12,066 nucleotides of DNA from Candidatus Bathyarchaeum sp. (lineage in GTDB: Archaea; Thermoproteota; Bathyarchaeia; Bathyarchaeales; Bathyarchaeaceae). The notes under the pieces were generated by a model that saw only the letters and a program-made list of their open reading frames with translations, made no database searches and was not told where the DNA came from. This document shows, in pieces, positions 2 to 12,066 of the stretch; the stretch's first letter is position 1; the number at the start of each line of letters is the position of its first letter. Both the position numbers and the translations under genes were made by a program. The stretch lies in the NCBI GenBank assembly GCA_026014495.1, contig JAOZIF010000102.1:1-12066 (forward strand), written 5' to 3'.

Positions 2-1168
2 ACTGTATTCTATTTTACTAGAAATGTAGAGCTTGTAGAGACGTATCCTGTTGAGCCGTATTTTGGGGTTTCTTTTTGTGGTGACACAGATGCAGAAGCT
101 AAGTTGTTGATTGATAAAATTAAGGATTACACGAATGTTTTTGTGTTGCAGTCGGGGCCTGTGAGTAAAAATGAAACTGCAACAAACATAATTTGTGATT
201 ATGCTGTTGATGCGGGCTTAGATTTTATTGTGTTTTTTGGGTGGTTTGATCCTAGTCAGCCGTGGCAGATTCCGTGGTTAGATTATGCTAAGGATCGCTG
301 GGGTAGTAGCTTTTTGGGCGTGTATTTCTTTGATGAACCTGGTGGTATTCAGGTTGATTATAACTGGACAATGATTTTTCATCACATACAAGAGGTTGAC
401 CCAGAGTTTTATCAGACAATCTCCGAGTATATCGAAGAGAGTGGTAACCAAACGGTGAACAGAGATTATGAAACAGTGAAAATTAGGTATATACATTATC
501 TGCAAGAGCATGTAGAGCTTTCTGTGTTAAATGAGCATTCGATTACTGCGTTCACGTCTGATTATGCTCTGTACTGGTTTGATTACCTTTCGGGTTATGA
601 TACAATCTTTGTTGAGTTAGGATGGAATCATGATCCACGGCAGCATATTGGAATGTGTAGGGGCGCAGCTACGGTGCAAGAAAAGGAATGGGGGTCAATT
701 ATTGTTTGGAATGACCTAGACAGAGAAAACAATCAAACAGGAGACTACAAGACTGGACCTGAAATGCTTGAAGACATGCATATTTCGTATGAGACAGGAG
801 CAGACTACATAATTATTTTTAATTACCCCACAGACCCTCCCGGAAACCCTTATGGCATCTTAACGGATGAACACTTTGAAGTGATGCAAGAGTTTTGGAG
901 TTACATGGAGCAAACTCCGGAAGATTACGGAAAAACGCAAGCGCAAGCTGCTCTAGTTCTTCCTGAAAATTATGGGTGGGGCATGCGTTCAGTGGATGAT
1001 CGAATATGGGGGTACTGGGGTCCAGATGAGCTGTCAGAGCAAATCTGGAACTTGTCCCAAGACATGCTTGACCAGTACGGTTTAGCGTTGGACATTGTCT
1101 ATGATAACCCAGACTATCCGCTTACTGATATTTATCAAGAAATTGTTTACTGGAACAGCACAGGCTAA
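2..1168 (+). CDS. Conserved archaeal hypothetical surface (glyco)protein, 5'-truncated; possible TIM-barrel glycoside-hydrolase-like fold
   Basis: The frame of the 104..1168 ORF is open back to base 2 (TVFYFTRNVELVETYPVEPYFGVSFCGDTDAEAK-LLIDKIKDYTN...), so the true start lies upstream of the window. Motifs GVYFFDEPGG, FTSDYALYWFDY and TIFVELGWN; six N-X-S/T sequons; acidic composition. Confidence 0.85.
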   Translation, partial: TVFYFTRNVELVETYPVEPYFGVSFCGDTDAEAKLLIDKIKDYTNVFVLQSGPVSKNETATNIICDYAVDAGLDFIVFFGWFDPSQPWQIPWLDYAKDRWGSSFLGVYFFDEPGGIQVDYNWTMIFHHIQEVDPEFYQTISEYIEESGNQTVNRDYETVKIRYIHYLQEHVELSVLNEHSITAFTSDYALYWFDYLSGYDTIFVELGWNHDPRQHIGMCRGAATVQEKEWGSIIVWNDLDRENNQTGDYKTGPEMLEDMHISYETGADYIIIFNYPTDPPGNPYGILTDEHFEVMQEFWSYMEQTPEDYGKTQAQAALVLPENYGWGMRSVDDRIWGYWGPDELSEQIWNLSQDMLDQYGLALDIVYDNPDYPLTDIYQEIVYWNSTG

Positions 1169-5821: not shown

Positions 5822-6418
5822 TCAGGTCTTGTCATGATTATTCAAACGCACAAGAATAGACAAAGCAAAAAGACCCAAAAAGAAAAGATGTGGAAAAAGT
5901 AACGCCAAAGGAAGATGCAACGGAAAAGTCAAGAGGGCAGGCAAAAGAACAGTCATCAACGGAACAAACAAAAGCCTATTTGACAAACACCGAGAAAACA
6001 ATAACTTCACATCCTTTGTCCTAAACAAAACAACAACAGCTACAACAAAAAGAACCCACTCAAGAACAACATTGGACAGACTATCAACACTAACAGCAAC
6101 CCCATACACACCAGTAGAAACAGGCCACAACAACTGCGCACCACCCGTCAAATAGTCTCCAATAAGACTATGCTGAACCACAGCCACAAAATACGGCACA
6201 GCCCGCCGCCTATACAACAAAAACAACGGAACAAAAAGCAAACAAAGAACCAACACCGAATGAAGAGGACCCCGATGCTCCAAAAAAGGAATAACTATAT
6301 CAATGTCAGGAAAAACAGACGCAAAAAAAATCAAAGAAAGATTAAGCTCAACACCCAAGAACCTAGACGCAACCTTCCCAGATAAGTACCCCAAAGCAAA
6401 GTGTCCAACAGCATACAT
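5822..6418 (-). CDS. Membrane-bound metal-dependent hydrolase (YdjM / LexA-binding inner-membrane hydrolase family)
   Basis: N-terminal GHF, PDID, HRGPLHS and QHSLIGD motif series within multiple TM helices; GAGG SD about 10 nt upstream of the ATG. Confidence 0.85.
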   Translation of the reverse strand: MYAVGHFALGYLSGKVASRFLGVELNLSLIFFASVFPDIDIVIPFLEHRGPLHSVLVLCLLFVPLFLLYRRRAVPYFVAVVQHSLIGDYLTGGAQLLWPVSTGVYGVAVSVDSLSNVVLEWVLFVVAVVVLFRTKDVKLLFSRCLSNRLLFVPLMTVLLPALLTFPLHLPLALLFPHLFFLGLFALSILVRLNNHDKT

Positions 6419-6568: not shown

Positions 6569-6880
6569 ATGATACCCTTCGAACTAACAGCCATAGACCT
6601 CATCCTAGTCATAGCCGTCATAGTCCTACTAATACTATACATAACAAAATTCGAAACAAAGACACCCAAAAAAACACAATTAACACAACAAACAATAACA
6701 AAAAAACTAAACATACTAAAAAAACAAGAATCAAATATTCAAAACAAACAAACACAATGCCCACGAGGATTCGGAAACATCAAAAAACTTGGCGACAACA
6801 CCACCATACCAGAACGATGTTTAGGCTGCTATAAAATCATGGAATGCTACAGCGAAAAAGACTGCAAATATGAATTGTAG
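6569..6880 (+). CDS. Small single-pass membrane protein with C-terminal Cys cluster (C-x19-C-x2-C-x5-C)
   Basis: Hydrophobic helix LILVIAVIVLLILYI, Lys/Gln/Thr-rich linker, then CPRGFG...IPERCLGCYKIMEC (C64, C84, C87, C93, plus C99). Confidence 0.8.
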   Translation: MIPFELTAIDLILVIAVIVLLILYITKFETKTPKKTQLTQQTITKKLNILKKQESNIQNKQTQCPRGFGNIKKLGDNTTIPERCLGCYKIMECYSEKDCKYEL

Positions 6881-7060: not shown

Positions 7061-7528
7061 ATGGTAACTAAAGAAGCCTTAATCACAGGCATGATGCTCA
7101 TGCTCGTCACATACACATTAGGTTTATCTCTAGTAAGTCAAGCATTCCCTGCAGGACAAACAAGCACAACATTCTCCAGCACGGGGTCAATACAGATACA
7201 AACTAGTGCTGGAATTGGCGTTTATTTAGATTCAGAGTGTGGGACACAATTAGACTCCATGTCATGGGGAACCCTTCAACCAGGAGGAAGCCAAACAACG
7301 ACATGTTACATAAAAAATGAAGGTAGTTCAGCAACTACACTATCTTTGGAAACTGATGGGTGGAGCCCCACATCTGCTGAGACTTACCTTAATCTGAACT
7401 GGGACTATAGTGGCGATCCAATCAATCCAAATGAAATGGTACAAGTTACGTTAACATTGTCAGTAGATTCAAGTATCGAAGGAATATCATCGTTCAGTTT
7501 CGACATCACCATTGTTGGAACCAGTTAA
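7061..7528 (+). CDS. Secreted or N-terminally anchored beta-sandwich (Ig-like) hypothetical protein
   Basis: N-terminal hydrophobic segment (aa ~7-28); Ser/Thr/Gly-rich acidic mature part with alternating beta-strand patterns (WGTLQPG, CYIKNEG, LNWDYSG, VTLTLSV, FSFDITIVG); one Cys pair. Confidence 0.85.
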   Translation: MVTKEALITGMMLMLVTYTLGLSLVSQAFPAGQTSTTFSSTGSIQIQTSAGIGVYLDSECGTQLDSMSWGTLQPGGSQTTTCYIKNEGSSATTLSLETDGWSPTSAETYLNLNWDYSGDPINPNEMVQVTLTLSVDSSIEGISSFSFDITIVGTS

Positions 7529-7714: not shown

Positions 7715-7921
7715 TTAGTTGTATGGCATGATTAAGCCTATCAGAACGGTGGCTACAAATGATGCGCCTAAAAGTAGCGCCACTAGTTGCATTTTTTGTT
7801 TGTCTATCGCAAAGTATCCAAAGCTAGTTGAGTAGGGAATTATTACTTTTGAAGTTGCTAGTAAAATAAGCGCCATTACTGCCAGCCAAAGACTAATGTC
7901 AGATAGTGATAGTGGAAGCAA
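7715..7921 (-). CDS. Small two-TM membrane protein (68 aa), hypothetical
   Basis: Two hydrophobic helices separated by a short loop containing IDKQK; TTG start with GGAGG SD 9 nt upstream, overlapping the previous gene's last codons; 5-nt intergenic gap. Confidence 0.75.
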   Translation of the reverse strand: MLPLSLSDISLWLAVMALILLATSKVIIPYSTSFGYFAIDKQKMQLVALLLGASFVATVLIGLIMPYN

Positions 7922-7926
7922 CGTGA

Positions 7927-9024
7927 TTATCCTCCAATTGTTTGATACCAGATGTCAACGGTTTTCAGGTCGGGCGTCACGTTGCTCTTGATTATAGTTA
8001 CTGGTTTTCCAATTGTCGTCGCTAGGGCGCATGCTATTGCACTTGTTAGCGGGCAGCCAATAACATGTACGCTTTTTAGCATCCGCTCTTTGGAGTATAA
8101 GTTTCTGTAGACCGAGTGTGTGATCTTTACATGAATACTATCGTTTTCTGGTTCAATTTCAAAGTCAGCAGCTAACTCTAAAGTGTCTACAATTAACCGT
8201 TGTAAGCTATCATACAAACTTTCGCGATCAATTTTTGTAAAGCTCATCTTTAGTTCAGTCTCGAAGATGCTTAGGAGTTCAGAGCCTGGAGGCGTAATGC
8301 ATAGGCCTTCAGGATTTTTAACCAAAAATTGACTTTTCACCAATTCTTCTATGGCAGGCATGCTTACTGTATCATTAGCTGAAATGAAAACCACTAGTTC
8401 TTTTAATCCTTTTAGATGTTCTGGAAGATATGCCTCTTTTGGATATGGTGGAATGTGTACAGAGTTGCCTGTGTAATGTAGGTCGTCTAGCGCACGATCA
8501 ATCGTTTTGTAAAAAGAAAGAACAGTGGAATCCAAGATGTCAGCTCTCACGAAACTTGTTGGTCTAACAAAAAGGAATAAAACACCCCAGAAAGTCAAAC
8601 TCAAACCAATCAATGTAAGAATTGTTGAGGCTAGTATAATGGAGTATAGAAGCAGCAACGCTCCGAAGATGAGAAGCAAAACGCCTATTTTGTGGGATGG
8701 CATTTGTTTAGACTTCGATGTTCCGTGCATTGCTGGTTGGTTTGGTTTCACTAACAACGTGTTTGAAGTAGCAACAGGCGGGGAATGCACTGAATCGCGA
8801 GTAAATTTTTTTGACAACAATTCAGTAAAAAATATTGCAAATAACGAAATTAAGTAAAATATGACATTAACTGATGACAACGACTCTATGAAGGTTTTAT
8901 TCCACACGACCATTGGTTGGACATGCGCCCAATAAATGAACCAAACTGCCGCCAATAAGAAAAGAAGCTGCAGAGCTCTGATTCCTTTGGATATACCAGA
9001 TTTCTGAGTTTGTTGATCAGTCAT
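7927..9024 (-). CDS. Conserved archaeal membrane protein (about 4 TM) with a cytoplasmic C-terminal alpha/beta domain, possibly V4R/H-NOX/Bet3-like
   Basis: ORF 7927..9075; ATG9024 (MTDQQ) preferred because GGTGA lies 8 nt upstream and it avoids overlap with the sortase. Two TM pairs, then a soluble domain with GLCITPPG and GCPLTSAIACALA..IGKPVTI. Confidence 0.8.
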   Translation of the reverse strand: MTDQQTQKSGISKGIRALQLLFLLAAVWFIYWAHVQPMVVWNKTFIESLSSVNVIFYLISLFAIFFTELLSKKFTRDSVHSPPVATSNTLLVKPNQPAMHGTSKSKQMPSHKIGVLLLIFGALLLLYSIILASTILTLIGLSLTFWGVLFLFVRPTSFVRADILDSTVLSFYKTIDRALDDLHYTGNSVHIPPYPKEAYLPEHLKGLKELVVFISANDTVSMPAIEELVKSQFLVKNPEGLCITPPGSELLSIFETELKMSFTKIDRESLYDSLQRLIVDTLELAADFEIEPENDSIHVKITHSVYRNLYSKERMLKSVHVIGCPLTSAIACALATTIGKPVTIIKSNVTPDLKTVDIWYQTIGG

Positions 9025-9062
9025 AAAAGTCATCACCAAATCTAATCCAATGTATTTTAAGA

Positions 9063-11147
9063 TTATGGCCTCCAAACAAGTTGAGGCTTATCAGTTATCT
9101 TTTTTATGGCTTTTTCCACAAGACCGTTTTCTTGAAGATGAGTCAACATATTCATTAGCTCTTCTGTTTGGAGAGATTCACTTGTGGCTTGTTCAATTGC
9201 GTGAGCAAGCTCTTCAGTTGTTGCTCCAGTTCCTTCATTTAGATTCTGCAATGTGTGATATAACAGCTTCTCATGTGTAGAGCCGAGGTTTTCAAAAAGT
9301 TTTAGGGAGTCCATTTTTTTTCTCCATTTTTGCTTGTAGTGAATAATTACAGTCACAATTATGAAAGTTATCGATATAAAGAGTAGTACTTGCAAAATGG
9401 GAATACTCAATGAAAAAAGAGATTGACTTTTGAGAGGTTCCCAGTATGTTGAAATTGCCTGAGCAAAAGTTAACAACTCATCTTCCAGTGCCGAGTATGA
9501 TGTTGAGTCGGGCGCCATAATTATCAGGCTTATTCTAACAAATTTTTGTTCAACAGTAAATCCAGTGTTGAACAACGCCTCTTCGTACCAGTATAAAGTA
9601 AGTTGAGTATAGTTATCGGGACTCTCAAACACAAAATAACGACCAATAATAGGTGGATTTTCCAGTAGCTGAATATCTCTTGAATCAATAACTGATACAG
9701 AAGGGGAGCGTCCGTGAGCAGTTTGCCAAGTAACATAACAAACTTCCCAGTTATGAAGGGTTGTTATCGAATCTGCAACTCCGATATCGACGTAAACCGT
9801 TTGTGTGGAGGCGTTCAAGGGCACATAGGCATACATTAGTGAAGCATCCTGACCAGATACTTCTTCGTAGTCAACATCACGGTAAAGGAATCTGAAGAGA
9901 TGCCCGTCAAACTCTGGAAAAATTTCAGCAGTATTTTCCATGTTTGGGTCATTGAACGTTAATCCTTGAGCAAAAGCGAACACAGGTGATTGTATACTTA
10001 AAGCGACCAAAAATAAACTCGTCATCAAAACAGAAGCTTTTATCCAGAATTTCTTTGGAAGTTTTGTGTGAAAATTGACGTTTTGAAGGAAGTTTCCGCA
10101 ATAATAGCAGAAGGATTCTTGTTTTTGGAGGCTAGTGCTGCAACTTGAACATGTCTGTAATTTGTTTGGTCGTCTGAATAGTTGTAAGTGTAAGAACTTT
10201 TCACTAATTAACAAGAGTCCCAGTATTCCACAGAAAACAAGAATCCAACCTGCTAGCCCATGGAATAGAGTCATAGCTAGTGCTTCGCCAAACCAGTAGC
10301 CAATTGCAATAATGGTAGATATTCTAATGATGTTTAGTGCTTGTAATAATACAAACCCAAAAAGAAAGAAACATGCCTTTTTGACAAGTGAGCCATCAAT
10401 TATGTATGCAAGAAAAGTGGCAAACATAACAAATGTAATTAATGAATAAATTCCTGAACAAGCTAGATCTACGGAAAATAGCATTGGTGTTTCTGAAGCA
10501 GTGTTAACGGCAATTGTTGGGGATCCATACGTAGAGTCTAGAATCACAGGCAGACCTAACGTTTTAAGCAACGTATAAGATGCCTGTGTGTTGAAGTTAC
10601 CAATTAGTGCACCTATTGTGTATGTTACTTCGGAGGGGATGGGTATGAAAAACAAAAGAAACAGAATGGGAAAAGCGATTACAATAGACGCTTTAAAGTT
10701 GAAAAGTATGAGCACTACTCCAGTAAGAAAAATTGGAAGAGAAACGAGATGATATTCAAGCGGGTAAAATGTTGAAGAGCCGTACCAGTATATAAGAAAT
10801 GAAAGGAGACAAAAACACAAGCCAACAACTTCGCTCAAAAAAGGGGGACTGGAACCCTGACGCAAATTCTCAAACTCTAAACTAGCTTTAAGAGAATCTC
10901 TTTTTCTGTATGCAATATATGCAGCTAAAACAGGAACAATAAGAACGTATGTTACTGCTTCGTTATACAGTGCTTCGTTGACTAAAAGTGAAAGATCATT
11001 CCAATAAACAATAAGAACCGTTAACAAAATTACAACTGCCGAAAGCGTAACATGAGGATTTCTTTTCAAATTTCGGATTACGTCTCGAAAAACGCTAGTC
11101 AATAGCCTCACCATTTCAAATAAGTGGTCATTGCATCTAGTTGTCAC
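9063..11147 (-). CDS. Exosortase/archaeosortase family protein fused to a zinc ribbon, an EpsI-like extracellular domain and a C-terminal winged-helix-like domain
   Basis: Multi-TM N-terminal half with FLLFFIPIP, VDLACSGIYSL (Cys230), LNIIRI (Arg275) and LFHGLAGW (His296), the exosortase/archaeosortase catalytic triad pattern. Then CSSC-x10-CYYCG, a TM, a soluble domain with TLHNWEVCY, a TM plus KQKWRKK, and ATTEELAHAI...LMNMLTHLQENGLVEK. The start may be ATG11114. Confidence 0.92.
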   Translation of the reverse strand: MTTRCNDHLFEMVRLLTSVFRDVIRNLKRNPHVTLSAVVILLTVLIVYWNDLSLLVNEALYNEAVTYVLIVPVLAAYIAYRKRDSLKASLEFENLRQGSSPPFLSEVVGLCFCLLSFLIYWYGSSTFYPLEYHLVSLPIFLTGVVLILFNFKASIVIAFPILFLLFFIPIPSEVTYTIGALIGNFNTQASYTLLKTLGLPVILDSTYGSPTIAVNTASETPMLFSVDLACSGIYSLITFVMFATFLAYIIDGSLVKKACFFLFGFVLLQALNIIRISTIIAIGYWFGEALAMTLFHGLAGWILVFCGILGLLLISEKFLHLQLFRRPNKLQTCSSCSTSLQKQESFCYYCGNFLQNVNFHTKLPKKFWIKASVLMTSLFLVALSIQSPVFAFAQGLTFNDPNMENTAEIFPEFDGHLFRFLYRDVDYEEVSGQDASLMYAYVPLNASTQTVYVDIGVADSITTLHNWEVCYVTWQTAHGRSPSVSVIDSRDIQLLENPPIIGRYFVFESPDNYTQLTLYWYEEALFNTGFTVEQKFVRISLIIMAPDSTSYSALEDELLTFAQAISTYWEPLKSQSLFSLSIPILQVLLFISITFIIVTVIIHYKQKWRKKMDSLKLFENLGSTHEKLLYHTLQNLNEGTGATTEELAHAIEQATSESLQTEELMNMLTHLQENGLVEKAIKKITDKPQLVWRP

Positions 11148-11241
11148 AAAATCAATTTTCAGAATTCTCTGGTTGTTAAGAGTTCAATGTTCAAAATAAA
11201 CTAAAAAAATGGTGAGACACTTAACAAAAAGTGAAAGATTG

Positions 11242-11751
11242 TTATCGTTCACAAATCACTTTTTTCTTTTTGACAATATATAGTCCTGTGGCTCCAAGAA
11301 ATGCTGCTACAGCAGCAATTGTTCCAAATGGAAACTCAGGAACGACATTAGGTTTCCATTGACTGCGACAGAAGAAACGCCAAAAGGACCATAGAAACCA
11401 TGGGCATCCTGTTGCTTTTGCAGAAACAGAGTATTCTCCTTCAGATGTTGCGATAACAGTTCCTACATACTTTACTGTATTTGTGTCCTCTAGCACTATT
11501 TCAAGATCGTACCACTCTGCAATAGATATATTGTTTGGGTCATAAACGATAACGTCGTGAATTGTAATTGTTTGGTTTGGGTCAATTGCTTCTGCTTTAA
11601 CGTAGATGTTCACTGCTTCTCCGGTTAAGTAGGTGTCTTTGTTGGTGTAGATTATGAAAGATTCTGTTGTTGCGTCTGCCATTGTTAATGGAACAAACAA
11701 GAACATCATACATAGTGCAATACTTATCACCACAATTGATGTTTTCCGCAT
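11242..11751 (-). CDS. PEF-CTERM (VPEF) protein-sorting-domain surface protein
   Basis: N-terminal signal peptide (MRK + hydrophobic + TMADA). C-terminal tripartite signal NVVPEFPF + TM (GTIAAVAAFLGATGLYIV) + KKKK. Mature domain begins IYTNKDTYLTGEAV (TDK..Y..GE.V-like, as in MG2/Ig-like domains); sequons NQT and NIS. Confidence 0.9.
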   Translation of the reverse strand: MRKTSIVVISIALCMMFLFVPLTMADATTESFIIYTNKDTYLTGEAVNIYVKAEAIDPNQTITIHDVIVYDPNNISIAEWYDLEIVLEDTNTVKYVGTVIATSEGEYSVSAKATGCPWFLWSFWRFFCRSQWKPNVVPEFPFGTIAAVAAFLGATGLYIVKKKKVICER

Positions 11752-11889
11752 TATTTTTTCACACAGTCAACAATTCAGCAAATTTTCATATTTAAAATAG
11801 TAAGAAAACTTAAACTAGAAAAAGGCACCAAAAAGTCTAGAATAAACGTAGCTAAACTGGACCATATCTACTCAAAGAACAAACCAAAA

Positions 11890-12066
11890 TCACGAGCTTG
11901 TTGTTTTTTCATAATAGTCAAACAGTTTTAGTAAATTCGTAGAAAAATTAGTCTCGTTAAACTGTTCCACGGTCTGCATCATATTGCGCGTGTTGTTTGG
12001 GGTCCAGCCAGTAACGAAGGCTTCTATTTTTTGTACAGCTTCAGTGATATTGTTGTATCTGTAATT
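11890..12066 (-). CDS. C-terminal end of a truncated CDS, probably a family 4 (GT-B) glycosyltransferase
   Basis: Open frame from the window end: NYRYNNITEAVQKIEAFVTGWTPNNTRNMMQTVEQFNETNFSTNLLKLFDYYEKTTSS* (TGA at 11890-11892). The helix pattern (Y.Y....EA...I......  ...F....F...L..L) resembles GT4 C-termini; only 58 aa are visible. Confidence 0.5.
   Translation of the reverse strand, partial: NYRYNNITEAVQKIEAFVTGWTPNNTRNMMQTVEQFNETNFSTNLLKLFDYYEKTTSS

Follow-up and report, generated by a model that had tools for sequence, protein, structure and literature searches.

A probable dedicated exosortase-substrate module within a surface-glycan island of Bathyarchaeia

Overview

The window analysed here is the whole of contig C161 (JAOZIF010000102.1), 12,066 bases, from a Candidatus Bathyarchaeum genome of 2.19 Mb in 196 contigs. 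It is probably the downstream end of a surface-glycan island that holds an inserted, dedicated protein-sorting module. The module consists of a 169-residue secreted substrate and a 679-residue exosortase-family enzyme, and it is set in an island backbone that includes genes for a putative DUF7982 protein of 365 residues, a 68-residue protein and a 155-residue protein. In the proposed mechanism the Sec pathway would export the substrate, and its C-terminal helix would hold it in the membrane. Cys230 of the enzyme, acting with Arg275 and His296, would then cleave at the sorting motif on the outer face, as expected from the family. The cleaved protein would be passed to an acceptor, which may be a lipid, as in ArtA, or something made by the glycan genes around the module.

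The sortase

The sortase gene and its parts are as follows; residue numbers follow the 694-residue open reading frame (ORF).

9063-11147, minus strand: exosortase-family enzyme, 694-residue ORF; probable start TTG 11102, giving 679 residues
10206-11024, minus strand: EpsH-type multi-pass core, residues 42-314
10458-10460, 10323-10325 and 10260-10262, minus strand: Cys230, Arg275 and His296
10098-10151, minus strand: CxxC...CxxC zinc ribbon, Cys333/336/347/350, predicted to be cytoplasmic
9399-9995, minus strand: predicted extracellular alpha/beta domain between two transmembrane helices, residues ~385-583; EpsI-like, Mog1/PsbP-type fold
9066-9284, minus strand: predicted C-terminal cytoplasmic winged helix, residues ~622-694

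The enzyme belongs to the exosortase superfamily, matching PF09721 with 116.6 bits (cut-off 25.7) and the generic signature TIGR04178 with 62.7 bits (cut-off 23). Scoring against the hidden Markov models (HMMs) of the exosortase and archaeosortase subfamilies, the check proposed in an earlier note on this DNA, placed it above the cut-off of no defined subfamily. The scores were 90.3 bits for XrtA (TIGR03109, cut-off 208), 90.2 for EpsH (TIGR02602, cut-off 105.55), 82.4 for XrtW (NF038142, cut-off 425), 69.5 for XrtD (TIGR04152, cut-off 400) and 19.2 for ArtC (TIGR03762, cut-off 100), the XrtW and XrtD matches being confined to the core. The models of thaumarchaeosortase (TIGR04297) and ArtA gave no match at E <= 1. 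Since the top subfamily scores are those of XrtA, EpsH, XrtW and XrtD, and ArtC reaches only 19.2 bits, the core by this measure lies nearer to the models of bacterial exosortases than to those of archaeosortases. A homologue search that covered proteins of about the full sortase length, near 680 residues, gave at least 598 database proteins matching the enzyme from end to end. The few named homologues are called just "exosortase" or "exosortase/archaeosortase family protein".

The Cys/Arg/His triad recognised on first reading was confirmed by alignment of 25 homologues: Cys230 is kept in at least 90% of them, and Arg275 and His296 in 25 of 25. The four cysteines of the ribbon are invariant in the same 25 proteins, and zinc-ribbon Pfam matches are weak. 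One full-length homologue, P0117, has Ser in place of the predicted catalytic Cys230.

Downstream of the EpsH core and the four-Cys zinc ribbon, the enzyme carries an EpsI-like ectodomain, an extra (tenth) transmembrane helix and a cytoplasmic winged helix. This C-terminal half is present in all homologues whose locus spans the region, down to 26% identity. The multidomain architecture claimed for the sortase is thus real and conserved across homologues, more than 500 of them from Bathyarchaeia, as judged from the alignment and the structure model. In the predicted structure of the C-terminal half, which has a predicted local distance difference test (pLDDT) score of 82, a transmembrane helix leads into an alpha/beta ectodomain, followed by a long membrane-spanning helix and the winged helix.

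The modelled ectodomain matches Mog1 with a Z of 9.4 (VIA), and PsbP, DcrB and LpqN in Foldseek. The EpsI HMMs PF11984 and TIGR02914 gave no match to it, nor did a Pfam scan of 44 homologue C-terminal halves return EpsI. When an ectodomain profile was searched against 1.84 billion representatives, 257 matches were obtained, and the best 150 all belong to the same sortase family. A profile was also made from 30 EpsI (PF11984) domains from Armatimonadota genomes. Aligned to it with hhalign, the ectodomain profile gave a probability of 84.6% and a P of 6.8e-6 over 128 columns, and the invariant H-x-W-E-x-C of the sortase family was paired with H-x-P-E-x-C of EpsI. The controls, an unrelated profile and a reversed EpsI profile, gave 0.9% and 0.5%. 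The single-sequence comparison of ectodomain and EpsI was not significant; only the comparison of profile with profile was. Together these comparisons give moderate support for the ectodomain being a divergent EpsI.

The modelled winged helix superimposes on solved domains with Z of 9-10.8 and root-mean-square deviations of 1.3-2.0 Å over 63-67 residues (VIA). The top superposition, with a Z of 10.8 and 1.3 Å over 66 residues, places the predicted domain in the winged-helix fold. Among the 50 VIA matches listed, 49 fall on this domain and include Fur, PadR, MecI, MarR and MCM; the remaining one, at rank 22, is the match of Mog1 to the ectodomain.

The substrate and its sorting signal

The substrate is encoded directly upstream of the sortase.

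11242-11751, minus strand: 169-residue secreted substrate ORF
codons at ~11320-11340, within 11242-11751, minus strand: sorting motif, followed by a Gly/Ala-rich transmembrane segment and KKKK

The protein starts with a signal peptide, continues with a beta-rich domain of ~110 residues and ends in a sorting signal. Its tripartite tail of VPEF, transmembrane segment and KKKK, and its position directly upstream of the sortase, were read correctly at the outset, as the ORF and the tail confirm. Orthologues with 59-73% identity adjoin the sortase in loci L003, L015, L019, L020 and L036. A Cys-bracketed stretch rich in Trp and Phe (11356-11406, minus strand) precedes the motif and is kept in the orthologues of L003, L019 and L020.

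Judged from the tails, the substrate's signal is a separate class, written PExP-[LF]-GT, and not the PEF-CTERM class of the host genome. About 40 ORFs of this genome have a tail made up of P-[ED]..., a hydrophobic segment and a cluster of basic residues. Most of these tails read IPEF-[PS]-S-W...L-P-L, and two of five generic ones that were tested reach the cut-off of the PEF-CTERM model TIGR03024 (23 bits); the substrate scores 13.5 bits as a whole protein and 18.2 with its tail alone. Both classes share [VI]-P-E, the substrate's motif reading VPEF, but after the motif the substrate continues with F-G-T and a Gly/Ala-rich helix, unlike the IPEF tails. In 55 related loci, some 58 tails of the PExP-[LF]-GT class occur no more than 7 kb from the sortase, typically one or two directly upstream of it, and no IPEF-SW-type tail was found within 7 kb in any of the 55. 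None of 56 tails of the class reached the cut-off of a curated sorting-signal model, TIGR02595 included.

The two classes were also compared with two profiles, profile A made from 55 sortase-adjacent tails of other genomes and profile B from seven tails found in genomes of the same genus in which the big sortase is missing. The substrate's tail scores 54.4 bits with profile A and 7.6 with profile B, while the ~26 generic IPEF tails of the host score at most 9 bits with A and 14-57 with B. The tail of a 303-residue protein at C71:3442-4353 (minus strand), far from the sortase, bears the substrate's tail class, with 48.8 bits on profile A and at most 8 on profile B. From its tail, this protein is probably a second substrate of the same sortase in the host genome.

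Distribution of the sortase and a second sortase

A phylogenetic profile was drawn up over 151 genomes taken evenly from the class. The C-terminal half of the sortase was found in 13 of them, and it was absent from all three other species of the same genus that were searched. Profile A matches all 13 sortase-positive genomes, with one to four matches each, and 5 of the 138 sortase-negative ones; the co-occurrence of sortase and signal, a criterion of the superfamily, is thus seen in this system. Two of the five exceptions are strong (G110 and G121) and three are borderline, with E of 1.6e-4 to 8.4e-4; the sortase-negative status of G121 looks like an assembly gap. The three same-genus genomes that are free of the sortase have no profile A tail, and they hold many tails of the IPEF type.

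The host genome has a second gene of the exosortase family.

L002:1315-2391 on contig C59, plus strand: second exosortase-family gene, 358 residues, between a CbiB-like gene and a GT2 glycosyltransferase gene

The best model for the C59 enzyme is thaumarchaeosortase, with 119 bits against a cut-off of 250, and by this score it is a member of an undefined subfamily too. In G090, a single-contig genome of the same genus, the sole exosortase-family gene is a short, thaumarchaeosortase-like one, 100 kb from the site (L059) that is syntenic with the window. The ~26 generic IPEF tails of the host are most likely handled by the C59 enzyme, because such tails persist in same-genus genomes without the big sortase. 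The conclusion for the 679-residue sortase is that it appears dedicated to few substrates, one to four per genome and two here.

These results bear on the proposal of the earlier note that this is a PEF-type system, and on the broader idea that the sortase is the organism's general PEF-CTERM enzyme, serving all [IV]PEF-tailed proteins. The VPEF motif of the neighbouring substrate and the [VI]-P-E common to both tail classes are what one would expect from a general enzyme. However, the neighbour's tail falls in the other class, the classes lie 40-50 bits apart, a second sortase exists, and the true PEF-CTERM-like tails persist in the same-genus genomes from which this rather rare enzyme is missing. 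A general PEF-CTERM role is therefore quite unlikely, and the PEF-type label is not supported.

The genes downstream of the sortase

Three further genes lie at the downstream side of the module.

7927-9075, minus strand: 382-residue ORF; 365-residue putative DUF7982 protein from ATG 9024 (7927-9024)
8569-8697, minus strand: conserved transmembrane hairpin of the 365-residue protein
7930-8556, minus strand: putative Bet3/V4R/BcsD-like domain of the 365-residue protein, with a conserved G-C-P-L segment
7715-7921, minus strand: 68-residue protein with two transmembrane segments, directly after the DUF7982 gene
7061-7528, plus strand: convergent ORF of the 155-residue protein

Scans of the 365-, 68- and 155-residue proteins with NCBIfam and with a copy of Pfam that lacks PF25939 gave nothing above noise. 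In the ESM Atlas the 365-residue protein is assigned to PF25939 (DUF7982, Pfam 38.1) with a feature score of 0.94, and its structure compares with DUF7982 clusters at TM-scores of 0.64/0.81; the Atlas range of the family is Bathyarchaeota and Nitrososphaerota. The predicted structure (pLDDT 79) has lineage-specific N-terminal helices, a conserved transmembrane hairpin and a 210-residue domain, which would be cytoplasmic because of the charge distribution around the hairpin. The modelled domain resembles Bet3/TRAPP, the V4R-type domains of MopR/PoxR/DmpR/MJ1460, BcsD/CesD and H-NOX in a homogeneous list of matches, though with middling VIA Z of 7-8.3, and its Bet3/V4R-like match in Foldseek has an E of 4e-3. 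Members of the Bet3/V4R fold family bind lipids, small hydrophobic ligands or glucan chains.

The association of these genes with the sortase was followed with local HMMs on all loci, in a close clade (sortases of at least 44% identity) and a distant clade (at most 42%, with the same full architecture). In the close clade a homologue of the 365-residue protein is directly downstream of the sortase in 31 of the 32 loci where this is visible, and the 68-residue gene follows it in 28 of 28. In the distant clade the 365-residue homologue adjoins the sortase in 2 of 15 loci and lies elsewhere in the locus in 3; the 68-residue gene comes after it in one of the two adjacent cases and two of the three others, and L033 has a 68-residue copy upstream. 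Neither gene is nearby in the remaining 10 of 15. At the level of genomes, DUF7982 is present in 12 of the 13 sortase-positive genomes and also in nine sortase-negative ones. G090 has the 365-, 68- and 155-residue genes at the syntenic site, with 43% identity for the 365-residue homologue, and no big sortase anywhere in the genome. Loci L060 and L061 likewise have the 365/68-residue pair without a sortase, in L060 with a flippase-sized ORF alongside.

The earlier note had expected the two downstream genes to accompany the sortase and to form with it a multi-subunit membrane complex, comparable to the glycosylphosphatidylinositol (GPI) transamidase. The first expectation held in the close clade and broke down in the distant clade and in G090. 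An obligate complex of the sortase with the 365- and 68-residue proteins would account for the constant order and strand of the close loci, for the gaps of 38 and 5 nucleotides, and for the frequency of DUF7982 in sortase-positive genomes; in the models the cytoplasmic domains of the sortase and the 365-residue protein could touch. Yet G090 keeps all three downstream genes at the syntenic site without the enzyme, DUF7982 extends to sortase-negative genomes and to Nitrososphaerota, and most distant sortases of full architecture do without either gene nearby, so that an obligate complex is unlikely. Because G090, L060 and L061 keep the pair without a sortase, the 365- and 68-residue genes, and with them the 155-residue gene, seem from gene content to be glycan-island backbone and not obligate sortase subunits. 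A physical contact of the sortase with the DUF7982 and 68-residue proteins within the close clade is compatible with these results.

The 155-residue ORF is a sixth conserved neighbour, with conservation equal to that of the 68-residue gene. The protein is N-terminally anchored with an immunoglobulin-like beta-sandwich, and homologues occur in 33 loci. Its Atlas neighbours are unnamed archaeal clusters only, with structural likeness to S-layer C and dockerin-bearing proteins. Some members of the nearest of these clusters carry the label of a viral (Uroviricota) contig. In relatives, paralogues of the family flank the sortase on its upstream as well as its downstream side. Elsewhere, at G118:C44:2995-4521, a 76-residue remnant of the sortase's winged-helix end, with an in-frame TAG, is found beside DUF7982 matches that are split, which suggests a copy of the locus in decay.

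The glycan island

At its other end the window runs into a glycosyltransferase gene.

11890-12066, minus strand: tail of a GT4-family glycosyltransferase, last 58 codons, open at the contig edge

The 58-codon fragment matches the end of a PF00534 protein from L059, the syntenic locus, with 40% identity. The first 321 codons of the gene open contig C174, where tblastn places residues 2-250 at C174:744-1, with matches to PF00534 and PF13439. The description of the window as a complete operon was thus wrong: the locus is incomplete here, because the contig terminates within the glycosyltransferase gene, and it goes on in C174. Next on that contig come a sulfatase, a paralogue of the 155-residue protein, GH5, DUF2206, three GT2 genes and a methyltransferase. 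The paralogue (C174:2529-3047) is 54% identical to one upstream of the sortase in L036, and a paralogue also lies upstream of the sortase in relatives, where a Wzx-type flippase, a GT2 of ~230 residues and the 155-residue paralogue precede the substrates.

L059 (G090:C1:1141000-1159000) has the gene order of contig C161 minus the substrate and the sortase. It begins with GT4, flippase, GT2, nucleotidyltransferase, epimerase and two C-methyltransferases, and then has the 365-, 68-, 155- and 103-residue genes, YdjM, a Gfo/Idh/MocA oxidoreductase, a class-V aminotransferase and Mut7-C. Between GT4 and DUF7982, a 7.3-kb sugar-modification cassette replaces substrate and sortase. As far as gene order can tell, the glycan island shows a swapping of cassettes between species within one genus.

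This setting raises the question whether the enzyme acts on glycan instead, as a polymerase, a flippase or a membrane-tethered regulator with a winged helix, the adjacent tails being ordinary membrane anchors. It does sit among glycan genes, the winged-helix fold is typical of regulators, and a flippase or polymerase function was at one time suggested for EpsH (PMC1569441). Against such a role, the enzyme family keeps the conserved Cys/Arg signature of the peptidases, its presence goes along, genome by genome, with that of a specific tail class, and the clusters have a separate Wzx-type flippase, which makes it highly improbable.

Gene order and gene starts

The genes of the window have relatives in metagenome-assembled genomes of Bathyarchaeia. 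The five co-oriented minus-strand ORFs (GT4 tail, 169, 694, 382 and 68 residues) and the gaps of 138, 94, 38 and 5 nucleotides given in the earlier note were reproduced from the ORF list. TTG 11102 is the more probable start of the sortase: the database record has the 679-residue product, a Shine-Dalgarno-like GGTGAGG lies just upstream, and the N-termini of homologues fit. With this start the gap between substrate and sortase is 139 nucleotides, not 94. GGTGA also lies just 5' of ATG 9024 in the 365-residue gene. T-runs are present 3' of the stop codons of the 169-residue and 68-residue genes; for this reason a single operon can only be presumed.

Comparison with known systems

Haft et al. 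(2006) described PEP-CTERM only in bacteria with an outer membrane and reported that some bacterial EpsH proteins carry an EpsI fusion (PMC1569441). The present system resembles PEP-CTERM/EpsH in several ways. Among the HMMs, XrtA and EpsH match the core best, each with ~90 bits, and a candidate EpsI-like domain comes after the core. The setting among polysaccharide genes is like that of bacterial EpsH embedded among exopolysaccharide genes (PMC1569441), and the substrates are small, diverse and secreted, with a tripartite tail that contains P-E. As in PEP-CTERM, some substrates appear here to be separate transcription units, from the T-runs after the substrate stop. Unlike PEP-CTERM/EpsH, the host is an archaeon, presumed to be without an outer membrane; the motif is one residue longer (PExP) and does not pass TIGR02595, and there are only one to four substrates per genome. 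The enzyme itself differs from EpsH/XrtA in scoring below their cut-offs and in having an added zinc ribbon, tenth transmembrane helix and winged helix. With the fused EpsH-EpsI enzymes XrtD (TIGR04152) and XrtW (NF038142) it shares a core and a C-terminal ectodomain in one polypeptide, but the match is limited to the core, far under the cut-offs of 400 and 425, the signal is another one, and the cytoplasmic modules are extra.

ArtA/PGF-CTERM of Haloferax volcanii is the sole experimentally studied model, in which cleavage is followed by lipid attachment (PMC9263693, PMC6098224). The two enzymes belong to one superfamily, share conserved Cys and Arg residues and go with a C-terminal signal of three parts. 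The third critical residue is Arg in ArtA and the conserved His296 in this sortase; ArtA is a plain multi-pass protein with many substrates, including the S-layer protein, whereas this enzyme is multidomain and has few. ArtC/PEF-CTERM and thaumarchaeosortase/PEFG-CTERM are archaeal as well and have a P-E-F motif. It is the host's C59 enzyme, however, that resembles thaumarchaeosortase, and the generic tails, not the substrate's, that reach TIGR03024. By analogy the system is one that would work like PEP-CTERM/EpsH-EpsI, with shared parts, yet it falls short of the cut-off of every subfamily tried. No description of it was found in the literature on exosortases and archaeosortases in Bathyarchaeia/Bathyarchaeota or on DUF7982, as the earlier note had supposed.

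A more far-reaching proposal is that Bathyarchaeia run a true counterpart of bacterial PEP-CTERM/EpsH-EpsI with their own PExP-[LF]-GT signal. The zinc ribbon and winged helix would then couple sorting to a cytoplasmic partner or signal, which in the close clade might be the Bet3/V4R-like ligand-binding domain of DUF7982. Taken as a whole this proposal is doubtful.

Strength of the proposed reading

Several points weigh against a dedicated module inserted in a glycan island. Profile A was built from adjacent tails, and part of these probably came from the set of species in which it was afterwards searched; matches to adjacent tails are partly circular for this reason, and the independent part of the tail evidence consists of the near-absence from sortase-negative genomes and the non-adjacent matches. 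Related genomes in the 151-genome profile are not independent samples. Tails on contigs C107 and C81 of the host genome score intermediate on the two profiles. The order sortase-DUF7982-68-residue gene in nearly all close loci, with its short gaps, fits a physical interaction there. The EpsI link is one 85% profile-profile score without a direct HMM match. Finally, that the tail is cleaved, where it is cut and what accepts the product are matters that we infer.

Significance

To our knowledge, exosortases are among the most widespread protein-sorting enzymes never characterised biochemically. Archaeal sortase work has so far rested on ArtA in haloarchaea, and in a 2018 review archaeosortases were described only for a subset of Euryarchaeota (PMC6098224). 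The present system is compact and has few substrates, with sortase and substrate genes usually adjacent, which suits a co-expression assay. PExP-[LF]-GT is a signal class recognised by no curated model, and surface proteins that bear it are therefore currently unannotated. A genome that has two sortases and two classes of signal, set beside sister species lacking one of the sortases, provides a natural comparison. In addition, the island offers a case of cassette exchange among species of one genus in abundant sediment archaea.

Other genes of the window

A 103-residue transmembrane protein with a Cys-rich end is encoded at 6569-6880 (plus strand) and a YdjM-family membrane protein at 5822-6418 (minus strand). 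Both genes have the same relative positions in L003, L023 and L059 and would be further backbone genes of the island. A 388-residue ORF at 2-1168 (plus strand) has no Pfam match; a homologue with a similar C-terminus is found at the corresponding end of the G090 locus.

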